From the NCBI RefSeq assembly GCF_056746865.1, contig NZ_CM163382.1: a DNA stretch of 64,000 nucleotides; one strand, 5' to 3'. Each line of letters begins with the position of its first letter. The first letter of the stretch is position 1. The notes under the pieces are model-generated. The model worked only from the letters and a program-made list of their open reading frames with translations, was not told where the DNA came from and searched no databases. Below, piece by piece: positions 2,442-37,730 of the stretch. The position numbers and the translations under genes were made by a program.

Positions 2442-2957
2442 ATGAGAAGAGTGCTCTTTAGCTGTTTCTGCGGGCTACTGTGGAGTTCCAGTGGATGGGC
2501 AGTTGACCCTTTAGGAACGATTAATATCAATTTGCACGGTAACGTTGTTGATTTCTCCTGTACCGTAAACACAGCGGATATTGATAAGACGGTAGATTTA
2601 GGCAGATGGCCTACGACACAACTACTGACCGCTGGCGATACCACGGCACTCGTCCCTTTTAGCCTGCGGCTGGAGGGATGTCCTCCGGGTTCAGTCGCGA
2701 TTTTATTTACGGGAACGCCGGCATCCGATACCAATCTGCTGGCTCTGGATGATCCCGCAATGGCACAAACCGTCGCCATCGAATTACGTAATAGCGATCG
2801 CTCCCGGCTCGCACTGGGGGAGGCGAGCCCGACTGAGGAAGTAGATGCAAATGGCAATGTCACACTAAACTTTTTTGCCAATTATCGAGCGTTAGCCAGC
2901 GGTGTTCAGCCAGGTGTGGCGAAAGCGGATGCGATATTTATGATCAATTATAATTAA
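2442..2957 (+). CDS. sfmF: minor fimbrial subunit
   Basis: ATG at 2442 preceded by GGAG; 171-aa product with signal peptide; longer ORF 2247-2957 rejected as upstream extension. Confidence 0.8.
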   Translation: MRRVLFSCFCGLLWSSSGWAVDPLGTININLHGNVVDFSCTVNTADIDKTVDLGRWPTTQLLTAGDTTALVPFSLRLEGCPPGSVAILFTGTPASDTNLLALDDPAMAQTVAIELRNSDRSRLALGEASPTEEVDANGNVTLNFFANYRALASGVQPGVAKADAIFMINYN

Positions 2958-2959
2958 TA

Positions 2960-3592
2960 TTATATTAATTCATATAATTTGGCGTAGTCGATAAGCTCTA
3001 CAATTGAATGCAATCCTAGCTTGCCATAAATATTAGATTTATGCGCACTAACTGTTTTATTGCTAAGTAATAACTTATCGGCAATTTCTTTATTAGATAA
3101 TCCGCTGACCAGATAACGTAATATCGTCACTTCACGATTAGATAGCACAGTGATCGTTGAACTATTCGTGCTACATTTATTGCTTTTTATATAGTTGAGC
3201 GTTTCGCTGGGAAAAAAAGTGTATCCGGAGAGGATCATCTGAACGGCATGAAAAATATCATTCTGATCATTGCATTTACTGACAAAACCGTTAGCACCAG
3301 CTTGTATCGCTCTGCCAGCATAAAAGCATTCTGATTTCGATGATAAAAATAATACTTTCACTGTGCTCTGGATTTGTTTGATCCTTTTCAGGAAGGTAAA
3401 ACCGTCTGTTCCGGGCAAGTCTATATCCATAATGATTAAATCAACAGGACGGGTTCGGAGATAATCGATGGTTATGCGATAATCATCCGTTTTCAGGACA
3501 ATTTGCAATTCACTGTTTTTTTGCAACAGAACTTCAATAGACATTCTGATGATAGGATGAGTATCCATAATGATCACCGACGTTGGTTTCAT
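2960..3592 (-). CDS. fimZ: LuxR-family two-component response regulator
   Basis: Start taken at MKPTSVIIMD (receiver domain with DLIIMDIDLPGTDG) and C-terminal LuxR HTH; ORF track gives a longer upstream extension. Confidence 0.85.
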   Translation of the reverse strand: MKPTSVIIMDTHPIIRMSIEVLLQKNSELQIVLKTDDYRITIDYLRTRPVDLIIMDIDLPGTDGFTFLKRIKQIQSTVKVLFLSSKSECFYAGRAIQAGANGFVSKCNDQNDIFHAVQMILSGYTFFPSETLNYIKSNKCSTNSSTITVLSNREVTILRYLVSGLSNKEIADKLLLSNKTVSAHKSNIYGKLGLHSIVELIDYAKLYELI

Positions 3593-3834
3593 AGTTACCA
3601 GTCTCATAGGATCGGACAATTTTCCGTTAGGGCGGGAAATTGTACTTTGATACATGAAAATACGGGTTTTCTTGATTCAGACGCGCAGCGGTGTACGTTT
3701 GTTTGCCGCTATAGCGAAATAAATCAGAAAATCAGACGCGGTCGTTCACTTGTTCAGCAACCAGATCAAAAGCCATTGACTCAGCAAGGGTTGACCGTAT
3801 AATTCACGCGATTACACCGCATTGCGGTATCAAC

Positions 3835-3911
3835 GCGCCCTTAGCTCAGTTGGATAGAGCAACGACCTTCTAAGTCGTGGGCCGCAGGTTCGAATCCTGC
3901 AGGGCGCGCCA
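3835..3911 (+). tRNA. argU: tRNA-Arg (anticodon UCU)
   Basis: 77-nt cloverleaf GCGCCCTTAGCTCAGTTGGATAGAGC...TTCGAATCCTGCAGGGCGCGCCA with UCU anticodon; 3' 45 nt repeated at 50407-50451. Confidence 0.95.
3867..3911 (+). repeat. attL core (3' part of argU)
   Basis: 45-bp sequence cttctaagtcgtgggccgcaggttcgaatcctgcagggcgcgcca repeated at 50407-50451; integrase gene adjacent. Confidence 0.85.
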
Positions 3912-3926
3912 TTACAATTCAATCAG

Positions 3927-5090
3927 TTACGCCTTCTTTATATCCTCCATAATTCCAGAGTGGGACATATTTGGGACATTATCACCAAAAATGTCGTCTA
4001 TTTTCCTCGCATGCTCTGTCAAATGATTAGGCGCAAGGTGAGCATACCTACGAACCATTTCTATGGACTCCCATCCGCCCATTTCCTGAAGCACTGATAA
4101 TGGGACGCCTGACTGAATCAGCCAGCTTGCCCAGGTGTGTCTGAGGTCATGGAAACGGAAATCTTCAATTCCTGCACGACGACAAGCTGATAGCCATGAT
4201 GTCTTGCTGTCGATGCGCATCTTCCTGACCGCAGGCGTTGATGTTCCATCTGCTCGCTTAGCCGCCTTGGTATGTACAAACACCCATTTGTGATGCTTGC
4301 CTATTTGATCACGCAACACTTTACAGGCGGTATCGTTCAGCGCCACACCAATGGCGCGGTTTGATTTGCTCTCTTCTGGATTCACCCAGGCAACTCGTCG
4401 CTGCATGTCGATTTGTTGCCATTCCAGATTTATGATGTTCGACTTTCTCAGACCAGTTGCCAGCGCAAACTTGACGACAGATTTCAGTGGTTCGGGGCAC
4501 TCATCAATAAGGCGTTTTGCTTCCTCCTTTTCCAGCCATCTGACTCGCTTGTTTCTGACCGCTGGTATCTTGATGACAGGCGCTTTTTCCAGCCACTTCC
4601 AGTCGCGTTCTGCAGCACGGAGAATGGCCTTTATCATGGCAAGATGCTTTGCCTTTGTCTGAGTTGATACTGGCTTTGGTTCATAAACAGGCAGTTCTTT
4701 ACCTTTCCTGATGGCGGCCTGAACTTTCTGTTTCCATATTTCTTTCGTCTTTCTGTTATGCATTCTGCTTACAGCAGAGTAAATCTTTGCCTCCGAGATA
4801 TCTTTAAGCCTTATACCCTCAAAATGTTCAAGCCAGAACTCAATCCGGCTTTTATCTGAATCGAGAGATTTTTTATCAGCTTTTTCCTCAAGCCATCTTA
4901 GGCAGGCCTCTTCAAAAGTGACATCAGGTAAATCCCCTAGCTTTTCTACTCGCCAGAGTTCTGCTTTTCGCTTGTCGTGCAACTCCTGAGCTTGCCGCTT
5001 GTCCTTTGTGCCAAGAGATTCCTTAATTCGTTTCCCGCCCGGGAGCGAATACGAGGCATACCATATTTCATTTCTGCGGAAGAGTGACAT
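3927..5090 (-). CDS. intD: tyrosine recombinase / prophage integrase (argU-site type)
   Basis: 387-aa ORF with C-terminal catalytic region (HDLRHTWAS...RYAH) immediately next to tRNA attL. Confidence 0.9.
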
Positions 5091-9087: not shown

Positions 9088-9095
9088 TAGCATCA

Positions 9096-10028
9096 CTATT
9101 CGATTTTTTTAACCATGTAGTTACGTCGTGATGTTCCTAATCTTTCATTGTGAATCTCAGAAACGCTTACTACGAGCGATATTCGTTCACCAACTTTATA
9201 TTTACTTTGAATTTCTCCTAACATATCAATCGGATAAGAAGCCTTTATTTTTCCAAGCTCGCTTGCAATCTCCAATTTCCCGTACATGGATAAAATAGCA
9301 AGTTCGCCTGATATATGCTCATCCGGTAGCTGAATGACCTTCGTTAAAGCTAAGCGAGCATTCAGTTTTTTTATATCTTCTGAAGAAATTGACACTTGTC
9401 TGGTACCATCACTTAAAGGTCCAATCCAAGTAAGATCAAAGTTAAGACTATATTTTTCGCACTCATTTATGATGTTTTTTAGGTTAGCTGTTGATTGCGA
9501 ACCAATTTCGGCAATTTTAGCCGTGAATGTTTCTTCATCAATGGATGAGAGTAGTGCAAAAATCTCCTTAACAGCATGACTGGATACTGTTTCGATGAGC
9601 TCGCAAGAACCAGTAGAAAAAGTAACACCTAACTTCGTCGAACCTGGACGCAAGTCTGCCAATCTCATGTCTAATGATTTTTTAACATCAATCGGCACAC
9701 GACTAGAATCTTTCCCAGATCCAAGTCGGTAAACTGCTTTCTGTACAAGGGATGCGAGATTACCTGAAATTACAGATAGAATATCTAACGGAATAGACCC
9801 GAAATCGACCAAAACACCTTTTAATCTCAACTCCATGAAATCACGTAAAGGATGTTGGTTATCGATTGCACGTTGTCTCTCTCGGAGATCGCTCAGATGG
9901 GAGTCAAGTGATCTAAATATAATGTCATCAGCAAATGATCTCCCCTTATTTTGAGCAAGCAGATCCACATCGCGTTGAATGAACGCAATTCGCTCCTTGA
10001 GGGAGTTGAATGTTTTTTCTTCGCTCAT
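9096..10028 (-). CDS. hypothetical 310-aa protein, second gene of repressor-linked cargo operon
   Basis: AT-rich ORF, start overlaps upstream gene stop by 4 bp; no recognisable motif; occupies the rexAB-equivalent position. Confidence 0.7.
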   Translation of the reverse strand: MSEEKTFNSLKERIAFIQRDVDLLAQNKGRSFADDIIFRSLDSHLSDLRERQRAIDNQHPLRDFMELRLKGVLVDFGSIPLDILSVISGNLASLVQKAVYRLGSGKDSSRVPIDVKKSLDMRLADLRPGSTKLGVTFSTGSCELIETVSSHAVKEIFALLSSIDEETFTAKIAEIGSQSTANLKNIINECEKYSLNFDLTWIGPLSDGTRQVSISSEDIKKLNARLALTKVIQLPDEHISGELAILSMYGKLEIASELGKIKASYPIDMLGEIQSKYKVGERISLVVSVSEIHNERLGTSRRNYMVKKIE

Positions 10029-10498
10029 AACATTACCCTCACGAGGCCTTTAGGATTCTCCTTCCGATCAAAACCAAACCACCCTCTCCAGTAACTTCGC
10101 CTTTCACTATAATCGATTTCTGGATGATTTTCAGGCAGCAAAAGAACGTCAATGCTGTAGTTTTCTTTAATAAAATCTCTATTTAACAATGAGCTGACCA
10201 ATGGCATCAGCGTGTTTGGCAAAGAGTTTAGGGCCAAATAATCGACGACCACGAGTATATCTATGTCATCAGGTTCAGGTTTCTCTGTAGTGAATGAACC
10301 ATCGATCCACACTTCAGAGAAACATAGACACTGCTGATTAACAAGTTTAAATTGCTCAATAAGCTGTATAAAATTACAGTATAGCATACTTCTTCTAACG
10401 GATTTTGGGAAGGTGTCGACACAAAGAGACTTGATGCCATCACTATCCATATCATGAAATCCTGCTGTAAGAAGAGGTGGGAAGCTAGGCTTTTCCAT
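10025..10498 (-). CDS. nucleotidyltransferase-fold (minimal NTase-like) protein, first gene of cargo operon
   Basis: Motif WIDGSFTTEKPEPDDIDILVVVD fits the G-S...D-x-D signature of Pol-beta-type NTases; 82 bp downstream of cI on same strand. Confidence 0.65.
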   Translation of the reverse strand: MEKPSFPPLLTAGFHDMDSDGIKSLCVDTFPKSVRRSMLYCNFIQLIEQFKLVNQQCLCFSEVWIDGSFTTEKPEPDDIDILVVVDYLALNSLPNTLMPLVSSLLNRDFIKENYSIDVLLLPENHPEIDYSERRSYWRGWFGFDRKENPKGLVRVML

Positions 10499-10579
10499 CC
10501 TAAGTCCTTGTTTATGCCATATAGTGTTCTATTTAATATTCTTGAAAAGAGTGTGCCTTAAAAAGCTACAGGCTAATTA

Positions 10580-13229: not shown

Positions 13230-13927
13230 AAAACATCGCCGCACAGATGGTTAACTTTGACCGTGAGCAGATGCGTCGGATCGCCAACAACATGCCGGAA
13301 CAGTATGACGAAAAGCCACAGGTACAGCAGGTAGCGCAGATCATCAACGGTGTGTTCAGCCAGTTACTGGCAACTTTCCCGGCGAGCCTGGCTAATCGTG
13401 AGCAGAACGAACTGAACGAAATCCGCCGCCAGTGGGTTCTGGCTTTCCGGGAAAACGGGATCACCACGATGGAACAGGTTAACGCAGGAATGCGCGTAGC
13501 CCGTCGGCAGAATCGACCATTCCTGCCATCCCCCGGACAGTTTGTAGCCTGGTGCCGGGAAGAAGCATCCGTTATTGCCGGACTACCAAACACCAGCGAG
13601 CTGGTTGATATGGTTTACGAGTATTGCCGGAAGCGTGGCCTGTATCCGGATGCAGAGTCTTATCCGTGGAAATCAAACGCGCACTACTGGCTGGTTACCA
13701 ACCTGTATCAGAACATGCGGGCCAATGCGCTTACTGATGCGGAATTACGGCGCAAGGCTGCCGATGAACTGACTTGTATGACCGCGCGAATTAACCGTGG
13801 TGAGGCGATACCTGAACCAGTAAAACAACTTCCTGTCATGGGCGGTAGACCTCTAAATCGTGCACAGGCTCTGGCGAAGATCGCAGAAATCAAAGCGAAG
13901 TTCGGACTGAAAGGAGCAACTGTATGA
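13226..13927 (+). CDS. P: replication protein P (DnaB helicase loader)
   Basis: 233-aa product recognised as near-identical to lambda P. Confidence 0.95.
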   Translation: MKNIAAQMVNFDREQMRRIANNMPEQYDEKPQVQQVAQIINGVFSQLLATFPASLANREQNELNEIRRQWVLAFRENGITTMEQVNAGMRVARRQNRPFLPSPGQFVAWCREEASVIAGLPNTSELVDMVYEYCRKRGLYPDAESYPWKSNAHYWLVTNLYQNMRANALTDAELRRKAADELTCMTARINRGEAIPEPVKQLPVMGGRPLNRAQALAKIAEIKAKFGLKGATV

Positions 13928-14226
13928 CGGGCAAAGAGGCAATTATTCATTACCTGGGGACGCATAAGAGCTTCTGTGCGCAGGACGTTGCTGCGGTAAC
14001 AGGCGCAACAGTAACCAGTATAAATCAGGCTGCGGCTAAAATGGCACGGGCAGGAATCTTGGTCGTTGATGGTAAGGTCTGGCGAACGGTGTATTACCGG
14101 TTCGCTACCAGGGAAGAACGGGAAGGAAAGGTGAGCACGAATCTGATTTTCAAGGAGTGTCGCCAGAGTGCCGCGATGAAACGAGTGTTGGCAGTGTATG
14201 GAGATATGAACTTAAACTTGCTGTGA
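13924..14226 (+). CDS. ren: Ren exclusion protein
   Basis: MTGKEAIIHYLGTH... matches lambda Ren. Confidence 0.85.
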   Translation: MTGKEAIIHYLGTHKSFCAQDVAAVTGATVTSINQAAAKMARAGILVVDGKVWRTVYYRFATREEREGKVSTNLIFKECRQSAAMKRVLAVYGDMNLNLL

Positions 14227-14474
14227 CGGTTTTCATCGGTAACACACCATGTAATCTAGCAGTCAGCTTAGAAATAGGAGCGGCAGTTAAAGATTTTTCA
14301 GTTAGTAGAAAATTACTGTTATTGCAGGGATCTAATCACCGGAGAGTCGTTCCATTTGTCTTATGATTACCTGAAGTCCGTTAGTTCGTTGGTAATCACC
14401 GTTTTTGTTAGAGAAGTAAGCATCGCTGACAAAATATTCTCAACGATGCCTGCTTTATTGCTACTACAAATTAA

Positions 14475-15977
14475 TTAAATTGCATCTGCAAACTCTGGGG
14501 TTTTTCGCTCAGGTATAATTGATGAGTTGCTGTTGTCACTTTTTTTATTTTCATGATTACGAATAGCCAATGACTCATTAAAGTCTTTTGCGACTGCTGT
14601 CTCAATAAATTCAATTTCTGAATCAGAGTGTTTTTTAACAGCTTCTTTGATCTCATCCAGAGTAACATAGAAAAACTCTTTTCTACGATTTACAAGATTG
14701 ACTCTCTTTTTATCGAAGACATCATGTAGTTTTTTTTCTAATGATGGAGCGTCCTCCGAATAAATCATGGCATGTACATCAAAAATAAAAGGAACAGATG
14801 CATCACCGAGCTCATTTACACGGTCTTGCGGATCAAGACGTCGTGTCATGCCTATTTTATAAACATTCTCCCCAAAAGAACCTATGTTCGAAATAATATA
14901 AACATGACCTTGTTTGGTTTGTTGTGCCATGGATAATGCTCTTTGATGCTTTGATTCAGCCTGCGACAAACTCTGTTCTAGTTCGGCAATGCGATTTTCG
15001 AGGCGCTGCTTCATGTCACCAGTAACTTTTTCCATTTCCTTTCTTGCAGCTTCAATTGCTTTTTTATAACGGCGCTCTTCTGCCTCTGCGTCTTGCATGG
15101 CCTTTTCTATTTCTCGTTGTGCACGCTCCTCCTCTCTCATTTGTGCCCTTATTTCTGCCTGTTCTTCTTTTTCTTTCTGTTTTTGCTCACGATATTCATG
15201 GGTAAGCCACAATTCCTCAAGTTTTTTATTGAGGTATTTAGTGTTTATATATATGTGATTTTGCTCGTTTAGTTTATTTATGGCCTCAAATGCCTTTGTG
15301 ATGCGTTCTTCCATTTTAGTGATGTTTTTCCACGTGCAATTGCTAATTGCAGCATCACATTCATTATTAAATGCTCTAGTAGTTAGCCTGATATTTCTGT
15401 CTGTCATTTTTTTACCCTCTGCTCGAGAGCCTTCAACAGTCCATTGGGTTGTACAATATACTGCGCCAGAGTGGGTTTTATCCCGCAGCATTAATTTCTG
15501 TTCATCCCTGATGGATTTTATTTTGTTTTTAAATTGCTCTGAATCTTCAAAATTAAAATGAGGTTCGTAAAATCCTAGTTCGGCTAGCTCAACATCTTCT
15601 GAATAAATAGAAATTTGCCTTACTAGTTTATCATATATTTCTTTCTTCTCTTTATAAGTTCTTCTTAGCTCTTGGATTTGTTTATTGATACCATCCATTT
15701 TTTCAATGGTGTTTGTTAGTTCATTATTGGCATTTTCTTTTACTTTTAGGGATTCTTCTTTTATTATGGAGCATTCTTGCTCTGTTTTCTCAATAAGCTT
15801 CTTACATTCTTCTTCTACATTAAAATAATCTGCAAAGCGAGATTTGTATTCTTCATTTTTTTGATTGCTATCACTTAATTCTAATTGTATTTTTTTGATG
15901 CGTTTGATTGCAGCTATATAAAGAACAAGAACAACCAATAAAAATATGATTGCAAGTAATAGAGGAGTTTGAGTCAT
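14475..15977 (-). CDS. membrane-anchored coiled-coil protein with C-terminal T5orf172/GIY-YIG-like domain (candidate defence/exclusion gene)
   Basis: N-terminal hydrophobic helix, long K/E-rich coiled coil, C-terminal GHVYIISN...YKIGMTRRLDPQDRVNEL...VPF motif; very AT-rich; opposite strand to surrounding early genes. Confidence 0.75.
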   Translation of the reverse strand: MTQTPLLLAIIFLLVVLVLYIAAIKRIKKIQLELSDSNQKNEEYKSRFADYFNVEEECKKLIEKTEQECSIIKEESLKVKENANNELTNTIEKMDGINKQIQELRRTYKEKKEIYDKLVRQISIYSEDVELAELGFYEPHFNFEDSEQFKNKIKSIRDEQKLMLRDKTHSGAVYCTTQWTVEGSRAEGKKMTDRNIRLTTRAFNNECDAAISNCTWKNITKMEERITKAFEAINKLNEQNHIYINTKYLNKKLEELWLTHEYREQKQKEKEEQAEIRAQMREEERAQREIEKAMQDAEAEERRYKKAIEAARKEMEKVTGDMKQRLENRIAELEQSLSQAESKHQRALSMAQQTKQGHVYIISNIGSFGENVYKIGMTRRLDPQDRVNELGDASVPFIFDVHAMIYSEDAPSLEKKLHDVFDKKRVNLVNRRKEFFYVTLDEIKEAVKKHSDSEIEFIETAVAKDFNESLAIRNHENKKSDNSNSSIIPERKTPEFADAI

Positions 15978-16286
15978 TCGTGCTATTCCTTACGGACAAT
16001 TTAAGACGTTTTGTATTAAATCCTGTTCAATGTGTATGCGGGTGATTGCTACCGCTTACAATCTTCATAATTATCAGTTAGATAGACTCGCTAGTAAATA
16101 ATTTCATTTTTTGCAATATTCTTATTGAATATTTCAATTTATGAAATGAACTCTTTATCCTTTCAAGGTGAAAGGTTTCTTCTTCGGAAATATTTGCTCT
16201 CGTGTGACGTATAAAGACCTTTGATTTTCAAAAATCAGTAGGGAATAATATAGTTACTGTCGGCCTGAACACCCGGTGGTGGGGTT

Positions 16287-16370
16287 GCGCTAAACGGGGA
16301 CGTTTATGCGCACACACAATCCAAACTCTCATCTCCATTCACAGATGCAGAAATGCACCTACGATTTTTT
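16287..16370 (+). repeat. 84-bp direct repeat, copy 1
   Basis: gcgctaaacggggacgtttatgcgcaca...cgatttttt, about 93 percent identical to 18221-18304; begins with a hairpin and ends with a T-run. Confidence 0.85.
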
Positions 16371-16789
16371 ACATTCGGTGTTTTACTTCGACAGCCAGAA
16401 TTGGGAGTCTCTATTCGTCTGGCGGCTAAAGGTGATATGGAAATCGTTATGTTTTGGCCTGAGGTAGTTGTAACTGTTGTAGCAGCTATGGATGTGATCA
16501 TCATGGTGTCCATTTACTGGGGTTGACGACATGATTTATCCGGCGCTATATTCTGTGCGTTGCCGCAAAATCGGCACACGGGATTGGCGTCCCGGGATAC
16601 TACTCAACGCATACCGCGTTAAGCGGTTTTTTTGTGCGCTAAGCACGGCTATGCCCAAATTATGGTGGGCTGTGTGAGGGCTTCTTCGGAAGCGCCGGGT
16701 TTGAGTAGCCGGTTACGCCAACCTTACACAGTTCACCACCAGTCGATTGGCGTCGTTGGTGGTGATGGTTAACCTGATGAGGTGATACT

Positions 16790-17398
16790 ATGACTACTCA
16801 ATTAGCATTCCACAAAACGACGTTTACCCCGATTTGCCACAATAACAGAATTTGGCTTACTGCCACTGAAGTTGGTTTAGCACTGGAATATGCGGACGAT
16901 AAAGCAGTTCAGCGCATTTACTCTCGGCACTCAGATGAATTCACAGATATGATGACAAGGGTGGTCAAAGTGACCACCCCTCGTGGAATGCAGGAGTCTC
17001 GAGTATTTAGCCTTCGCGGAGCCCATTTGATCGCCATGTTTGCTCGTACTCCTGTGGCCAAAGAATTCCGCCGCTGGGTTCTGGATATTCTCGATCGAGA
17101 AGTTCAACAATCCCCAATCACAAAACAATTCACTGATAACGAACTTTGCACACTCGCCTGGTTATGGCGAGCAAGTGATACGATGTTAACCGCCTGCCAG
17201 AACGTTACGCCCCTTCTTCAGGTCGCAGAGCATCGCGAAGCAGGTAGATTCACTTCAATCGAACAAGAATATCCTCGGATACTCAACAGGGCGCGAGAAA
17301 TCCTTGCCAGAGAAACGGCGCATGTAAAATTCCAACCGTGGCAGGATGATAAGTGGAGTCGTGTGTTACCATATTTCCGTCAGAATCTGTTGCAATAA
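16790..17398 (+). CDS. Bro-N/antirepressor-like protein
   Basis: N-terminal pattern ...RIWLTATEVGLALEY...RWVLDIL resembles Bro-N/Ant-type phage domains. Confidence 0.55.
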   Translation: MTTQLAFHKTTFTPICHNNRIWLTATEVGLALEYADDKAVQRIYSRHSDEFTDMMTRVVKVTTPRGMQESRVFSLRGAHLIAMFARTPVAKEFRRWVLDILDREVQQSPITKQFTDNELCTLAWLWRASDTMLTACQNVTPLLQVAEHREAGRFTSIEQEYPRILNRAREILARETAHVKFQPWQDDKWSRVLPYFRQNLLQ

Positions 17399-17633
17399 AG
17401 TCACTAGTTAGAAATACTGCCAGCATTCTGCGATGACGGAAGTGCTGGCATTTTTTTTGGTAATGTGCGAGTCCATTTCATAAAATACGGGTACTGGAAC
17501 TGGACGATATAATCTAAAAGATACCATTATCAGTAGCATTAAAATCGCTATGTGCCGATACGGATATAAATTATATTGATTGTTCACATACCTTATTGGA
17601 TATTACTGAGGGGTGTTTATATAAGGTGTAACG

Positions 17634-18143
17634 ATGATGTGGAACTTTGACAGTGCCGACTTAAGTGCAATAGCAGCAGGCATTTCTGCGTTTGGCACAT
17701 TAGCCGCAGCGGGGTCGGCGCTTGCAAGTTGGTGCACGTCAAAAAAAGCGCTGCAGCTACAAAATAGAGTTTACCTTTATGAGTCTTTAAAGGCTTGCGC
17801 TGAGAGAGCCAATTCATCAGCTAAAGATAAGCGCGGATCTGAATGGAGCGTTAATGATGCAGCGGATATCATCAGGTGCCTAGTACGGGCGATGGAGCTC
17901 ATCAAGCAGGATAGCCAGCAGAAAGAAGGTAATCAGGCATTAATGTTGAAACAGTACTTTGTTAATCTGCTAATAATGGAACTGTACGAGGAAGTTCATA
18001 ACGGTGATGCGGCTGATTCTGTTTTTAAAAGTACGGAACCTACACAAGTACTTGATAACTTATGGAGCAAATGGCAGGAGGCTATAGCTTTTTTTGATAT
18101 TTGGAATTACCCAGTTGCGACTGAGGAAGACTTGGCAGACTAA
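17634..18143 (+). CDS. hypothetical protein with N-terminal hydrophobic segment
   Basis: 169-aa ORF within the repeat-flanked module. Confidence 0.5.
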   Translation: MMWNFDSADLSAIAAGISAFGTLAAAGSALASWCTSKKALQLQNRVYLYESLKACAERANSSAKDKRGSEWSVNDAADIIRCLVRAMELIKQDSQQKEGNQALMLKQYFVNLLIMELYEEVHNGDAADSVFKSTEPTQVLDNLWSKWQEAIAFFDIWNYPVATEEDLAD

Positions 18144-18220
18144 TTTTCAGCACATTTGATTTCCAATAATCAACCAGCCATAATCATGCCATTGGAGCTT
18201 GAACAACTCCGGTGACTTCT

Positions 18221-18304
18221 GCGCTAAACGGGGACGTTTATGCGCACATACAATCCAAACTCTCTTCTCCCTTCACAGATGCAGAGATGCACCTGCGATT
18301 TTTT
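18221..18304 (+). repeat. 84-bp direct repeat, copy 2
   Basis: Second copy of the repeat at 16287-16370, immediately upstream of ybcN. Confidence 0.85.
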
Positions 18305-18337
18305 GCATCCAGCGTTTGACCTCTGCGGAGGTGAAGC

Positions 18338-18793
18338 GTGAACCTCCCACAAGACGGCATCAAATTGCATCGTGGTAACTTCACCGCTATCGGCCAGCAG
18401 ATCCAGCCTTATCTGGAGGAAGGCAAATGCTTTCGCATGGTGCTTAAACCGTGGCGTGAGAAACGCAGTCTTTCCCAGAATGCACTCAGCCACATGTGGT
18501 ACAGCGAAATCAGTGAATACCTCATCAGCAGGGGTAAAACGTTCGCCACTCCAGCTTGGGTAAAAGATGCTCTCAAACACACATATCTCGGTTATGAAAC
18601 CAAAGACCTGGTTGATGTCGTAACCGGTGAGATCACCACTATCCAGTCGTTACGCCATACCTCCGATCTTGATACCGGAGAGATGTATATCTTCCTGTGT
18701 AAGGTTGAAGCCTGGGCGGTGAATATTGGCTGCCACCTGACTATTCCGCAGAGCTGCGAGTTCCAGCTGCTGCGCGACAAGCAGGAGGCGTAA
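18338..18793 (+). CDS. ybcN: YbcN-family nin-region protein
   Basis: GTG start after GGAGG; 151-aa product recognised as DLP12 YbcN. Confidence 0.85.
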
Positions 18794-19827: not shown

Positions 19828-20211
19828 ATGCGTGATATTCAGATGGTTCTTGAGCGTTGGGGAGCGTGGGCGGCTAATAATCATGAAGATGTGACCTGGT
19901 CGTCCATTGCCGCCGGTTTTAAGGGATTAATTCCTTCAAAAGTAAAATCTCGCCCGCAATGTTGTGACGATGACGCGATGATCATTTGCGGGTGCATGGC
20001 CCGTCTGAAAAAGAACAACAGCGATTTGCACGATTTATTAGTAGATTATTATGTAGTCGGTATGACATTCATGTCACTGGCAGGTAAGCATTGCTGCTCT
20101 GATGGTTATATCGGGAAAAGGTTACAAAAGGCTGAGGGCATAATTGAAGGGATGTTAATGGCATTAGATATCCGGTTAGAGATGGATATCGTTGTTAATA
20201 ACTCTAATTAA
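19828..20211 (+). CDS. quuD: late-gene antiterminator Q
   Basis: Start at [18 protein letters not shown]; recognised as DLP12-type Q; followed by hairpin-rich qut/terminator region. Confidence 0.85.
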
Positions 20212-20227
20212 TATGCCAATTGTTTAC

Positions 20228-20263
20228 TAAAAATTATTAAAAATGGGGCGTTGAGACGCCCCC
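20228..20263 (-). terminator. candidate rho-independent terminator (minus strand)
   Basis: Stem GGGGCGT-loop-ACGCCCC with a T-rich tract on the minus strand. Confidence 0.35.
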
Positions 20264-20350
20264 AAAAATAAAGGGTAATATATAACAGAAGGTTTATATA
20301 GTTAGAAGCAAGGTTGTGCTTCTAAAGGAAGTGGCTTGAGGGAGCCACTT

Positions 20351-20390
20351 ATATGTTGGGGAGGCAACGCCTCCCGCAACATATCTTTTT
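20351..20390 (+). terminator. tR'-like terminator downstream of Q/pR' (possibly bidirectional with the porin gene)
   Basis: Near-perfect palindrome ATATGTTGGGGAGGCAACGCCTCCCGCAACATAT followed by CTTTTT. Confidence 0.55.
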
Positions 20391-20400
20391 CGTAATCAGA

Positions 20401-21483
20401 TTAGAACTGGTAAACCAGACCTACAGCAACGATGTCATCAGTATCAATACCAGCTGTTTTGGTAAACTTACTATCGTCAATTAAGTTGATTTTGTAATCA
20501 ACAAAAGTGGACATGTTTTTATTAAAGTAGTAAGTAGCACCGACATCGACATACTTGACTAAGTCTCGGTCACCATGAACACCAAGGTCTTTACCTTTTG
20601 ACTGAAGGTAAGCAACAGATGGGCGCAGACCGAAGTCAAACTGATATTGTGCTACTGCTTCAAAGTTTTGTGCTTTGTTTGCAATATGGTTATTACCAAA
20701 AACGGTCATATTCTGAGTTTCAGAATATGTGGTAGCCAGATAGATATTGTTCGCATCATATTTCAGGCCTGCAGCCCATACTTCCGCATTTTTGCCGGAG
20801 GCATTGAATTTGCTCTTACCATAGGCGACCTGACCGTCAGTGCGATCTGATTTAGCATAGGTTGCACCCACGCCGAATCCTTCATACTCATAAGTAGTGG
20901 AGAAACCGAAACCATCACCATTGGCTTCAGTTACGTCAGTGCGGTCATTTTTACCCTGATACTGAGCAGCAAAGTTCAGGCCATCGACCAGACCAAAGAA
21001 GTCGTTGTTACGATAAGTTGCAACACCAGTAGTGCGACCAGTCATGAACACATCTGTTTGGGTCCAGGTATCACCACCGAATTCTGGCAGGACGTCAGTC
21101 CACGCACCGATGTCGTATGCTACACCGTAGTTACGGCCGTAATCGATTGAGCCGTAATCACCAAATTTCAGGCCTGCAAATGCAAGACGGGTTTTGTCTT
21201 TGGAAGAACCTTGAGATTCAGCGCGGTTGCCTTTGAATTCATATTCCCACTGACCGAAACCAGTCAGTTGATCGTTGATTTGGGTTTCACCTTTGAAGCC
21301 AAGACGGGCATAAGTAGTATCACCATCATCTGCATCATTAGAGGAGAAGTAGTGCTTAGCATTAACTTTCCCGTACAGATCCAGCTTGTTACTGTCTTTA
21401 TTATAAATTTCAGCTGCCTGAGCAGACATCGCCATCAGTACTGATGCAGCTACAGCAGAAATTGCCACTGTTAATTTTTTCAT
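20401..21483 (-). CDS. nmpC: general outer-membrane porin (NmpC/OmpD-like), prophage cargo
   Basis: 360-aa product with signal peptide and C-terminal ...VGLVYQF porin ending; located between Q and lysis genes on opposite strand. Confidence 0.85.
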
Positions 21484-22056
21484 CGTGAGCCCTTTTTTTT
21501 GAACTATTATTAAAAAATGATGTCACTGCGCGATAAATATTCATCTAATCAATGTGATTATTTCAAGATGTAAGTTTTGGTTTCTCGTTTAATTTGTGAA
21601 GTAGATCTCTATTTTTATCTGAACTTTTTTCTATCGAATCCTATTCATGGCTCTTGGCTGAATAAAAATAAATCTATTAGCCAATTTATATTAATGGCTG
21701 TTATTTATAAGTGCTCTATAATTTGAAGGTTCAATTTAAATTGGCTAAAAATAACGCTGGAAATTATTTGTTGGTTATTTGTTGAGATTTGCTTATGTAT
21801 TTGTAGTGGTGTTTTCAATACTCGGTAGCATTCTCGCAAATATCATTTAGTGGTTTACGTACGTAAAAAATTGGTTATGCTGTTAAGAGTGGTTACTTCG
21901 TCACACAGCTTAAACCCGCCGTCGAGCGGGTTTTTCCATTTTTTGAGTCTCGATATTAGCTGATAACCCAATACCTGAGTTATTCACTGACTCCGAGTCT
22001 GTTACGTTTCGTAGTATTCCCTCAATTTACACCCGCTTTGTCTGCGAGGTGGGGTT

Positions 22057-34766: not shown

Positions 34767-35182
34767 GTTTTGCCCTGAAACTGGCGCGTGAGATGGGGCG
34801 ACCCGACTGGCGCGCCATGCTTGCCGGGATGTCATCCACGGAGTATGCCGACTGGCACCGCTTTTACAGTACCCATTATTTTCATGATGTTCTGCTGGAT
34901 ATGCACTTTTCCGGGCTGACGTACACCGTGCTCAGCCTGTTTTTCAGCGATCCGGAGATGCATCCGCTGGATTTCAGTCTGCTGAACCGGCGCGAGGCTG
35001 ACGAAGAGCCTGAAGATGATGTGCTGATGCAGAAAGCGGCAGGGCTTGCCGGAGGCGTTCGTTTTGGCCTGGACGGGAATGAAGTTATCCCCGCTTCCCC
35101 GGATGTGGCGGACATGACGGAGGATGACGTAATGCTGATGACAGTATCAGAAGGGATCGCAGGAGGAGTCCGGTATGGCTGA
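34748..35182 (+). CDS. T: tail assembly protein T (made as G-T fusion by -1 frameshift)
   Basis: -1 frame ORF overlapping 3' end of G, recognised as lambda gpT. Confidence 0.85.
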   Translation: MFDGELSFALKLAREMGRPDWRAMLAGMSSTEYADWHRFYSTHYFHDVLLDMHFSGLTYTVLSLFFSDPEMHPLDFSLLNRREADEEPEDDVLMQKAAGLAGGVRFGLDGNEVIPASPDVADMTEDDVMLMTVSEGIAGGVRYG

Positions 35183-37730
35183 ACCGGTAGGCGATCTGGT
35201 CGTTGATTTAAGTCTGGATGCGGCCAGATTTGACGAGCAGATGGCCAGAGTCAGGCGTCATTTTTCCGGTACGGAAAGTGATGCGAAAAAAACAGCGGCA
35301 GTCGTTGAACAGTCGATGAACCGGCAGGCGCTGGCTGCACAGAAAGCGGGAATTTCCGTCGGGCAGTATAAAGCCGCCATGCGTATGCTGCCTGCGCAGT
35401 TCACTGACGTGGCCACGCAGCTTGCAGGCGGGCAAAGTCCGTGGCTGATCCTGCTGCAACAGGGGGGGCAGGTGAAGGACTCCTTCGGCGGGATGATCCC
35501 CATGTTCCGGGGGCTTGCCGGTGCGATCACCCTGCCGATGGTGGGGGCCACCTCGCTGGCGGTGGCGACCGGAGCGCTGGCGTATGCCTGGTATCAGGGC
35601 AACTCAACCCTGTCCGATTTCAACAAAACGCTGGTCCTTTCCGGCAATCAGGCGGGACTGACGGCAGATCGTATGCTGGTCCTGTCCAGAGCCGGGCAGG
35701 CGGCAGGGCTGACGTTTAACCAGACCAGCGAGTCACTCAGCGCACTGGTTAAGGCGGGGGTAAGCGGTGAGGCTCAGATTGCGTCCATCAGCCAGAGTGT
35801 GGCGCGTTTCTCCTCTGCATCCGGCGTGGAGGTGGACAAGGTCGCTGAAGCCTTCGGGAAGCTGACCACAGACCCGACGTCGGGGCTGACGGCGATGGCA
35901 CGCCAGTTCCATAACGTGACGGCGGAGCAGATTGCGTATGTTGCTCAGTTGCAGCGTTCCGGCGATGAAGCCGGGGCATTGCAGGCGGCGAACGAGGCCG
36001 CAACGAAAGGGTTTGATGACCAGACCCGACGCCTGAAAGAGAACATGGGCACGCTGGAAACCTGGGCAGACAGGACAGCACGGGCATTCAAATCCATGTG
36101 GGATGCGGTGCTGGATATTGGTCGTCCTGATACCGCTCAGGAGATGCTGATTAAGGCAGAGGCTGCGTTTAAGAAAGCAGACGACATCTGGAATCTGCGC
36201 AAGGATGATTATTTTGTTAACGATGAAGCGCGGGCACGTTACTGGGATGATCGTGAAAAGGCCCGTCTTGCGCTTGAAGCCGCCCGAAAGAAGGCTGAGC
36301 AGCAGAGTCAACAGGACAAAAATGCGCAGCAGCAGAGCGATACCGAAGCGTCACGGCTGAAATATACCGAAGAGGCGCAGAAGGCTTACGAACGGCTGCA
36401 GACGCCGCTGGAGAAATATACCGCCCGTCAGGAAGAACTGAACAAGGCACTGAAGGACGGGAAAATTCTGCAGGCAGATTACAACACGCTGATGGCGGCG
36501 GCGAAAAAGGACTATGAAGCGACGCTGAAAAAGCCGAAAGGCGTGAAGGTGTCTGCGGGCGATCGTCAGGAAGACAGTGCTCATGCTGCCCTGCTGACGC
36601 TTCAGGCAGAACTCCGGACGCTGGAGAAGCATGCCGGAGCGAATGAGAAAATCAGCCAGCAGCGCCGGGATTTGTGGAAGGCAGAAAGTCAGTTCGCGGT
36701 ACTGGAGGAGGCGGCACAACGTCGCCAGCTGTCCGCACAGGAGAAATCCCTGCTGGCGCATAAAGACGAGACGCTGGAGTACAAACGCCAGCTGGCTGTA
36801 CTTGGCGACAAGGTCACCTATCAGGAGCACCTGAACGCGCTGGCGCAGCAGGCGGATAAGTTCGCACAGCAACAACGGGCAAAACGGGCCGCCATTGATG
36901 CAAAAAAACGGGGGCTGACTGACCGGCAGGCAGCGCGGGAAGCCACGGAACAGCGCCTGAAGGAACAGTATGGCGATAATCCGCTGGCGCTGAATAACGT
37001 CATGTCAGAGCAGAAAAAGACCTGGGCGGCTGAAGACCAGCTTCGCGGGAGCTGGATGGCAGGCCTGAAGTCCGGCTGGAGTGAGTGGGAAGAGAGCGCC
37101 ACGGACAGTATGTCGCAGGTTAAAAGTGCTGCCACGCAGACCTTTGATGGTATTGCACAGAATATGGCGGCGATGCTGACCGGCAGTGAGCAGAACTGGC
37201 GCAGCTTCACCCGTTCCGTGCTGTCCATGATGACAGAAATTCTGCTTAAGCAGGCAATGGTGGGGATTGTCGGGAGTATCGGCAGCGCCATTGGCGGGGC
37301 TGTTGGTGGCGGCGCGTCCGCGTCAGGCGGTACAGCCATTCAGGCCGCTGCGGCGAAATTCCATTTTGCAACCGGAGGATTTACGGGAACCGGCGGCAAA
37401 TATGAGCCAGCGGGGATTGTTCACCGCGGTGAATTTGTCTTCACGAAGGAGGCAACCAGCCGGATTGGCGTGGGGAATCTCTACCGGCTGATGCGCGGCT
37501 ATGCCACCGGTGGTTATGTCGGTACACCGGGCAGCATGGCGGACAGCCGGTCGCAGGCGTCCGGGAAGTTTGAGCAGAATAACCATGTGGTGATTAACAA
37601 CGACGGCACGAACGGTCAGATAGGGCCACAGGCGCTGAAGGCGGTTTATGACGTAGCCCGTAAGGCGGCAATGGATGTTGTGACCGGGCAGATGCGTGAT
37701 GGTGGTCTGTTCTCCGGAGGTGGACGATGA
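35175..37730 (+). CDS. H: tail tape-measure protein H
   Basis: 851-aa product recognised as lambda gpH. Confidence 0.95.
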   Translation: MAEPVGDLVVDLSLDAARFDEQMARVRRHFSGTESDAKKTAAVVEQSMNRQALAAQKAGISVGQYKAAMRMLPAQFTDVATQLAGGQSPWLILLQQGGQVKDSFGGMIPMFRGLAGAITLPMVGATSLAVATGALAYAWYQGNSTLSDFNKTLVLSGNQAGLTADRMLVLSRAGQAAGLTFNQTSESLSALVKAGVSGEAQIASISQSVARFSSASGVEVDKVAEAFGKLTTDPTSGLTAMARQFHNVTAEQIAYVAQLQRSGDEAGALQAANEAATKGFDDQTRRLKENMGTLETWADRTARAFKSMWDAVLDIGRPDTAQEMLIKAEAAFKKADDIWNLRKDDYFVNDEARARYWDDREKARLALEAARKKAEQQSQQDKNAQQQSDTEASRLKYTEEAQKAYERLQTPLEKYTARQEELNKALKDGKILQADYNTLMAAAKKDYEATLKKPKGVKVSAGDRQEDSAHAALLTLQAELRTLEKHAGANEKISQQRRDLWKAESQFAVLEEAAQRRQLSAQEKSLLAHKDETLEYKRQLAVLGDKVTYQEHLNALAQQADKFAQQQRAKRAAIDAKKRGLTDRQAAREATEQRLKEQYGDNPLALNNVMSEQKKTWAAEDQLRGSWMAGLKSGWSEWEESATDSMSQVKSAATQTFDGIAQNMAAMLTGSEQNWRSFTRSVLSMMTEILLKQAMVGIVGSIGSAIGGAVGGGASASGGTAIQAAAAKFHFATGGFTGTGGKYEPAGIVHRGEFVFTKEATSRIGVGNLYRLMRGYATGGYVGTPGSMADSRSQASGKFEQNNHVVINNDGTNGQIGPQALKAVYDVARKAAMDVVTGQMRDGGLFSGGGR

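Follow-up and report, generated by a model that had tools for sequence, protein, structure and literature searches.

Defence proteins acting where phage DNA enters

When a prophage gene is considered as a possible anti-phage factor, the closest point of reference for the locus described below is PD-λ-1 of E. coli ECOR26, a 1503-nt gene (product RCP76574.1) that was validated as a single-gene defence system expressed from its native promoter (Vassallo et al. 2022, Supplementary Table 2, PMC9519451). In that study, all systems were cloned under their native promoters on a low-copy plasmid and adsorption was unaffected by any of them; the functional PD-λ-1 clone comprised the gene with flanks of 282 bp and 62 bp, and HHpred placed DUF4041 at residues 197-252, T5orf172 at 357-448 and MUG113 at 373-449. 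The protein was later renamed SNIPE in a preprint of the Laub laboratory (Saxton et al. 2025, 10.1101/2025.11.03.685801), where it was shown by experiment to reside in the inner membrane, with a periplasmic N-terminus and with DUF4041 and the nuclease domain in the cytoplasm. In the same work, TurboID-ManZ was found to proximity-label SNIPE in infected and uninfected cells alike, the λ tape-measure protein gpH was labelled during infection, and the susceptibility of λ relatives followed their ManYZ dependence and tape-measure clade. DUF4041 binds DNA and contacts the tape-measure protein; DUF4041 mutations strengthened defence against phage Bas14 in a manner that depended on the Bas14 tape-measure protein (Saxton et al. 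2025). A 2026 review gives the same summary of SNIPE (PMC12904381). The interest of this system lies in self and non-self being told apart by location, namely, by DNA entering at the membrane, and not by sequence or modification.

Several other systems resemble SNIPE in part. Zorya and Kiwa likewise operate at the inner membrane, on injecting phage DNA or close to it, but they are multi-gene systems that sense membrane or cell-wall perturbation and have no sequence relationship to SNIPE, which consists of one protein and binds directly to the injection machinery. HK97 gp15 is likewise a prophage-encoded inner-membrane protein that depends on the incoming tape-measure protein and on host inner-membrane proteins; however, it carries no nuclease and prevents injection, whereas SNIPE admits the DNA and then cuts it. 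The nuclease domain is shared with the PADLOC candidate PDC-S57 (E=1.7e-18 over residues 354-468) and with the stand-alone T5orf172/GIY-YIG protein L22 of phiP27 (57% identity over residues 320-476), but PDC-S57 and the stand-alone T5orf172/GIY-YIG proteins possess neither a transmembrane (TM) anchor nor DUF4041, so that the spatial targeting logic is absent from them. Finally, distant DUF4041-T5orf172 homologues (ES18 gp19, CDMH1 gp42, EJ-1 ORF3, PLE3 gp32, Poushou gp33, Klebsiella ST13-OXA48phi12.3) share with SNIPE the DUF4041 domain, the linker helix and the GIY-YIG-type nuclease, as well as moron or lysogeny-module positions, but overall they are 29-52% identical to it, and their N-terminal regions show no relationship (15% identity), having presumably been adapted to different routes of injection, as suggested in the preprint (Saxton et al. 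2025).

Identity and architecture of the prophage gene

The window analysed here is a stretch of 64,000 nucleotides from contig NZ_CM163382.1 (assembly GCF_056746865.1), which holds an apparently intact DLP12-like/lambdoid prophage of ~46.5 kb (~3,910-50,457). A sequence-only reading had pointed to a 500-aa minus-strand ORF in this prophage, AT-rich and with an AT-rich upstream region of its own, and the composition bears this out: the gene (Table 1) has 35.1% GC and the 300 bp upstream of it 33.7%, as compared to 48.4% for the window, 49.4% for the prophage and ~50-51% for ren, O/P and ybcN.

Table 1. Features of the SNIPE locus and of its carrier prophage, in window positions
Feature	Position	Strand	Basis or remark
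tRNA-Arg(TCT)	3835-3911		adjoins prophage
Integrase	3927-5090		
ren, left flank of slot	13924..14226	+	phrog_142 Ren-like exclusion protein, E=5.5e-42; Ren in PhiR26_1
AT-rich SNIPE cassette (hairpin, gene, promoter region)	14413..16285	.	14227-16285 has 35.5% GC
Stem-loop, possible terminator	14414..14455	-	starts ~20 nt after stop; -21.6 kcal/mol, z=-4.1 (RNA fold)
SNIPE / PD-λ-1 CDS	14475..15977	-	ATG-start ORF, 500 aa + stop
T5orf172/MUG113 (GIY-YIG-type) nuclease domain	14631..14909	-	residues 357-449; Pfam
Catalytic glutamate E414 codon	14736..14738	-	present in window protein, invariant in homologue alignment
DUF4041 Pfam core (PF13250)	15222..15386	-	residues 198-252; Pfam E=1.2e-19
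N-terminal TM helix codons, then KRIKK	15906..15962	-	residues 6-24; hydropathy, helix in AF2 models
Ribosome-binding site AAGGA	15987..15991	-	9 nt before ATG, read from sequence
Candidate sigma-70 promoter-like site TTTACT-17 nt-GATAAT	16070..16098	-	consensus scan 9/12, ~90 nt upstream of ATG
89-bp copy 1 of orf33 5' region, right cassette boundary	16286..16374	+	93% identical to 18220-18308
Rha/anti-repressor-like gene	16790-17398		between SNIPE and nin genes
orf169, 169 aa, function unknown	17634-18143	+	phrog_1779 full-length; 44.5% GC
ybcN/ninB-like gene	18338-18793		first of downstream nin-type genes
Prophage tape-measure protein	35175..37730	+	97% identical to λ gpH, A304 kept

The identity of this gene is indicated by several lines of evidence. 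The PADLOC PD-Lambda-1 profile PDLC03976 (491 positions) matches residues 1-485, that is, at full length, with E=1.9e-198, and a second PADLOC profile, PDLC03977, and phrog_1847 match the window protein with E=7e-195 and E=7e-196, respectively. The DNA at 14200-16800 is 99.9% identical to that of Escherichia phage PhiR26_1 (PV340555.1), whose depositors labelled the matching gene 'PD-lambda-1', and the two products are 100% identical over 500 aa. All nine residues named in the preprint (E223, N250, L253, W257, E264, K305, I308, T319 and E414) are found at the same numbering in the window protein. Hence, the gene is identical to PD-λ-1/SNIPE, and we put at about 0.93 the probability of the reading as a whole, namely, a direct defence against phages that consists of one protein, is borne as a moron by a DLP12/λ-like prophage and acts in the manner set out below; the link to the characterised protein runs through the PhiR26_1 product, the nine named residues, the ECOR26 source and the 1503-nt length. 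The ECOR26 gene and the present one agree in the protein, its 500-aa length, its domain coordinates and its slot between ren and a Rha-like gene, and only the background differs, PhiR26_1 being a mosaic relative of the window prophage, ~97% identical, with another immunity segment and tail-fibre region.

The gene is thus already known: it is named, present in PADLOC and annotated in GenBank/RefSeq, and its mechanism has been dissected by experiment. The proposal that it is an independently expressed moron acting as a single-gene anti-phage factor was borne out by the published validation under the native promoter (PMC9519451), so that the sequence-only description and functional guess were essentially right, but the existing name and characterisation had gone unrecognised. 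At least 1000 public contigs carry the exact protein sequence, labelled 'DUF4041 domain-containing protein'; recent RefSeq annotation uses 'DUF4041 / SNIPE associated domain-containing protein'. The gene is present in 130 of the 5,426 complete E. coli genomes, in every case on the chromosome. The window copy adds a further instance of the prophage slot and the cassette in which the gene naturally occurs, and it matters as annotation only, the discrimination by location having been published for this exact protein.

The architecture of the product also agrees with the expected one. The predicted N-terminal hydrophobic helix is present as residues 6-24, LLLAIIFLLVVLVLYIAAI, with a Kyte-Doolittle 19-residue mean of 3.37, and a hydropathy scan revealed no further hydrophobic segment in the protein; the KRIKK stretch that follows the helix fits the positive-inside rule. 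A coiled coil of several hundred residues had been expected as well, and long charged helices are indeed found in the predicted model, but they do not form a continuous stretch: two such helices, ~25-133 and ~246-353, flank a globular domain (~146-245; pLDDT 85-95 in the alignment-based model) that encloses the DUF4041 core. Both domains that the earlier reading had proposed for checking, the DUF4041-like and the T5orf172/GIY-YIG-like one, were recovered by Pfam, the latter as T5orf172 (PF10544, residues 357-449, E=6.9e-17) and as MUG113 (PF13455, residues 373-449, E=7e-19). We take PF10544 and PF13455 to be members of the GIY-YIG clan, and RefSeq labels fragments and homologues of the protein 'GIY-YIG nuclease family protein'. 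These coordinates are almost exactly those that Vassallo et al. obtained for PD-λ-1 with HHpred. Pfam detected no ATPase domain in the protein. An identity as an SMC or Lamassu LmuB-like protein was rejected: LmuB matched with E=0.032 and an archaeal SMC-related profile with 18.6 bits against a cut-off of 300, and there were no Pfam ATPase heads.

Action on entering DNA and the homologue family

In the mechanism that we favour for this protein, SNIPE is located beside the mannose permease ManYZ, the inner-membrane DNA route of λ-type phages; at injection, DUF4041 touches both the DNA and the tape-measure protein, while the entering genome is cut by the GIY-YIG-type nuclease at the C-terminus. 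The membrane tether keeps the nuclease off the host chromosome, and DNA already in the cell, including that of the induced carrier prophage, is left untouched. In this lysogen, we infer, SNIPE has a promoter of its own that is active under repression of pR, and the cell would be protected chiefly from those heteroimmune λ-type siphoviruses whose injection machinery is of the gpH type found in the carrier. Within the present analysis, this view is based on the architecture, the 100% identity, the conservation of catalytic residues, and the cassette structure and context; the literature on the same protein contributes the topology, the loss of function with E414A, the degradation of 32P-labelled λ DNA, the proximity to ManYZ and the tape-measure protein, and the unaffected adsorption and prophage induction.

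Two other modes of action, both raised by the sequence-only reading, have to be weighed against this one. SNIPE could be an abortive-infection toxin, its nuclease being released or activated on infection and killing the cell by degrading the host DNA. The nuclease is able to attack the chromosome, as SNIPE deprived of its TM helix is toxic and binds and cuts the nucleoid (Saxton et al. 2025); it follows from this toxicity, however, that membrane tethering is what prevents self-attack, and bringing host DNA to the membrane caused no extra toxicity. Furthermore, λ genome foci are ~30-fold fewer in SNIPE-expressing cells, with correspondingly less lysis, and the preprint classes PD-λ-1/SNIPE as a direct defence which the cells survive, not as abortive infection (10.1101/2025.11.03.685801). 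We therefore regard this alternative as very improbable. The second alternative, classical superinfection exclusion, would imply a physical block of DNA injection with the nuclease being dispensable or secondary, and it draws on the features shared with HK97 gp15, namely, a prophage-encoded inner-membrane protein that depends on the tape-measure protein and on a host inner-membrane complex. This suggestion was close as far as the effect is concerned, because it is at the entry of the genome that SNIPE intervenes. Its mechanism, however, is the cutting of entering DNA: 32P-labelled λ DNA entered the cells normally and equally with and without SNIPE and was then degraded to a smear in an E414-dependent manner, and E414A abolished both defence and cleavage, defence being lost also upon deletion of DUF4041 (10.1101/2025.11.03.685801). 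Since E414 and the nuclease motifs are, in addition, the best conserved part of the family, a mere injection block appears hardly credible. Returning to direct cleavage by SNIPE, an induced λ prophage replicated and lysed the cells normally despite the presence of the protein (Saxton et al. 2025), so that SNIPE attacks only DNA in transit.

The conservation pattern was obtained from an alignment of 15 sequences, the window query and 14 distant homologues, in which the mean identity to the query was 67% for the nuclease, 36% for DUF4041 and 15% for the N-terminal region. Residues G357, V359, Y360, K374, I375, G376, R379, R380, E414, N427 and N430 are invariant, which covers the GxVY, YKIG, RR and N motifs and the glutamate, and an N-terminal hydrophobic or TM helix is present in 9 of the 15 proteins. 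These figures independently repeat the trends reported in the preprint (10.1101/2025.11.03.685801). A tblastn search found homologues in 41 records of phages and 199 of plasmids, with Klebsiella (phage-plasmids), Salmonella (ES18 gp19), Clostridium, Lactobacillus, Streptococcus, Corynebacterium, Mycobacterium and Marinitoga among the hosts; in Gram-positive prophages, the homologue often lies beside the integrase or cI/ImmA regulators.

This family also bears on a third alternative, namely, that the gene is a selfish GIY-YIG/T5orf172 homing endonuclease or a component of phage replication or partition. T5orf172 domains do occur in phage genomes, and some homologues are named 'chromosome segregation ATPase', 'ParA' or 'replication'. 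However, the ATPase-type names reflect spurious coiled-coil matches (SMC-related and LmuB, E ~6e-4 to 0.03), and a protein with both a TM anchor and DUF4041 is not built like a homing endonuclease. The opposite strand and the lysogen-type cassette, with Gram-positive homologues located next to integrase or cI, speak against this possibility as well, and defence has been shown by experiment (PMC9519451; 10.1101/2025.11.03.685801), which makes it the least probable of the readings considered.

One member of the family has a neighbourhood of its own kind: ES18 gp19 (2659-4188 of the ES18 locus), described as a 'possible moron' with its own putative terminator, is found among tail genes, with a single gene between it and the tape-measure gene or directly ahead of the latter's neighbour, which is a curious location given that the characterised member of this family binds tape-measure proteins.

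Cassette, cargo slot and carrier prophage

The SNIPE gene is preceded by a ribosome-binding site and a candidate promoter and followed by a stem-loop (Table 1); the latter has no clean T-run and was not called by the terminator scan. The 282-bp and 62-bp flanks of the published functional clone would be compatible with the promoter-like site, the ribosome-binding site and the hairpin. The block 14413-16374 is shared with E. coli TBU0218 at 97.5% identity but is flanked there by different genes: towards ren there is an additional HD-domain gene on the opposite strand, and at the other end the block is followed immediately by orf33-ybcN. Thus, SNIPE travels as a cassette of ~1.9 kb.

The gene had been placed between ren and the nin genes. 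Both flanks are correct, but a Rha-like gene and orf169 also intervene before the nin genes. The whole arrangement of SNIPE, the Rha-like gene and orf169 is common to 83 genomes (ren-to-ybcN query). For the right boundary of the cassette, 16286-16374, matches are found upstream of the nin genes in many lambdoid phages, orf33 of phage 82 being one of them. This 89-bp sequence, the 5' part of the small orf33 leader ORF upstream of ybcN/ninB, is repeated directly at 18220-18308, so that the Rha-like gene and orf169 lie between two copies, as compared to a single copy and no Rha/orf169 module in TBU0218; this difference suggests that the module was inserted or exchanged by recombination at the conserved 89-bp sequence. 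Elsewhere, orf169 and the Rha/anti-repressor-like gene travel together in many E. coli prophages; orf169 has an alanine/glycine-rich hydrophobic N-terminal segment and yielded no match in Pfam or PADLOC.

In other genomes, the same flanks enclose emrE/ybcK (K-12 DLP12 type), a HEPN protein, a DUF4145 protein with Pol III theta, an alpha/beta hydrolase, or nothing at all, and in TBU0218 the cargo of the slot (14227-18337 in the window) is a 515-aa opposite-strand HD-domain protein beside SNIPE. The ren-ybcN slot looks like a cargo or defence hotspot of E. coli prophages. It is possible, although on balance we lean against it, that the ren-orf33/ybcN junction of DLP12/λ-type prophages serves as a hotspot for the exchange of cassettes that carry lysogen-expressed defence genes, the 89-bp orf33 leader being the recombination handle, and that the main natural role of SNIPE, being carried on a gpH-type phage, would be the exclusion of kin that share its injection route. 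Were the hotspot real, its other occupants could include uncharacterised defence genes, such as those for the 515-aa HD protein, the HEPN and DUF4145 proteins, and the membrane-like orf169 product. The leads that are left thus concern the neighbourhood, that is, the variable ren-orf33 slot and its uncharacterised occupants, and not the SNIPE gene.

In several strains, the gene or its module is damaged: it is interrupted by IS5 in LP-26-E1-261 and B1.H1.1 and by IS1 in Evo1, an IS3 lies nearby in MB06173, and in P276M SNIPE is cut to 338 aa within a decayed DLP12-like remnant. Apparently, the gene has been lost repeatedly.

The carrier prophage is 96.5-98% identical to PhiR26_1 in most blocks and ~83% in one, and is unrelated to it at ~9089-10579 (immunity region) and ~44024-49027 (tail-fibre region). 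The A304V substitution in gpH lets a 'generalist' λ bypass ManYZ (Saxton et al. [quoted passage not shown] Because induced prophages are spared, SNIPE would impose no cost on its carrier while heteroimmune kin using the same entry route would be excluded. Resistance of this lysogen to λ-type siphoviruses with ManYZ-dependent injection is probable.

Other morons of this prophage are bor, lom and ompT, the ORF at 49030-49983 near the right end corresponding to the omptin (ompT-like) gene of PhiR26_1. A second AT-rich patch is seen at ~20000-21500 of the window (37-39% GC at ~20000-20800) and would correspond, by collinearity, to the opposite-strand OmpD/NmpC-like porin gene of PhiR26_1, a further moron.
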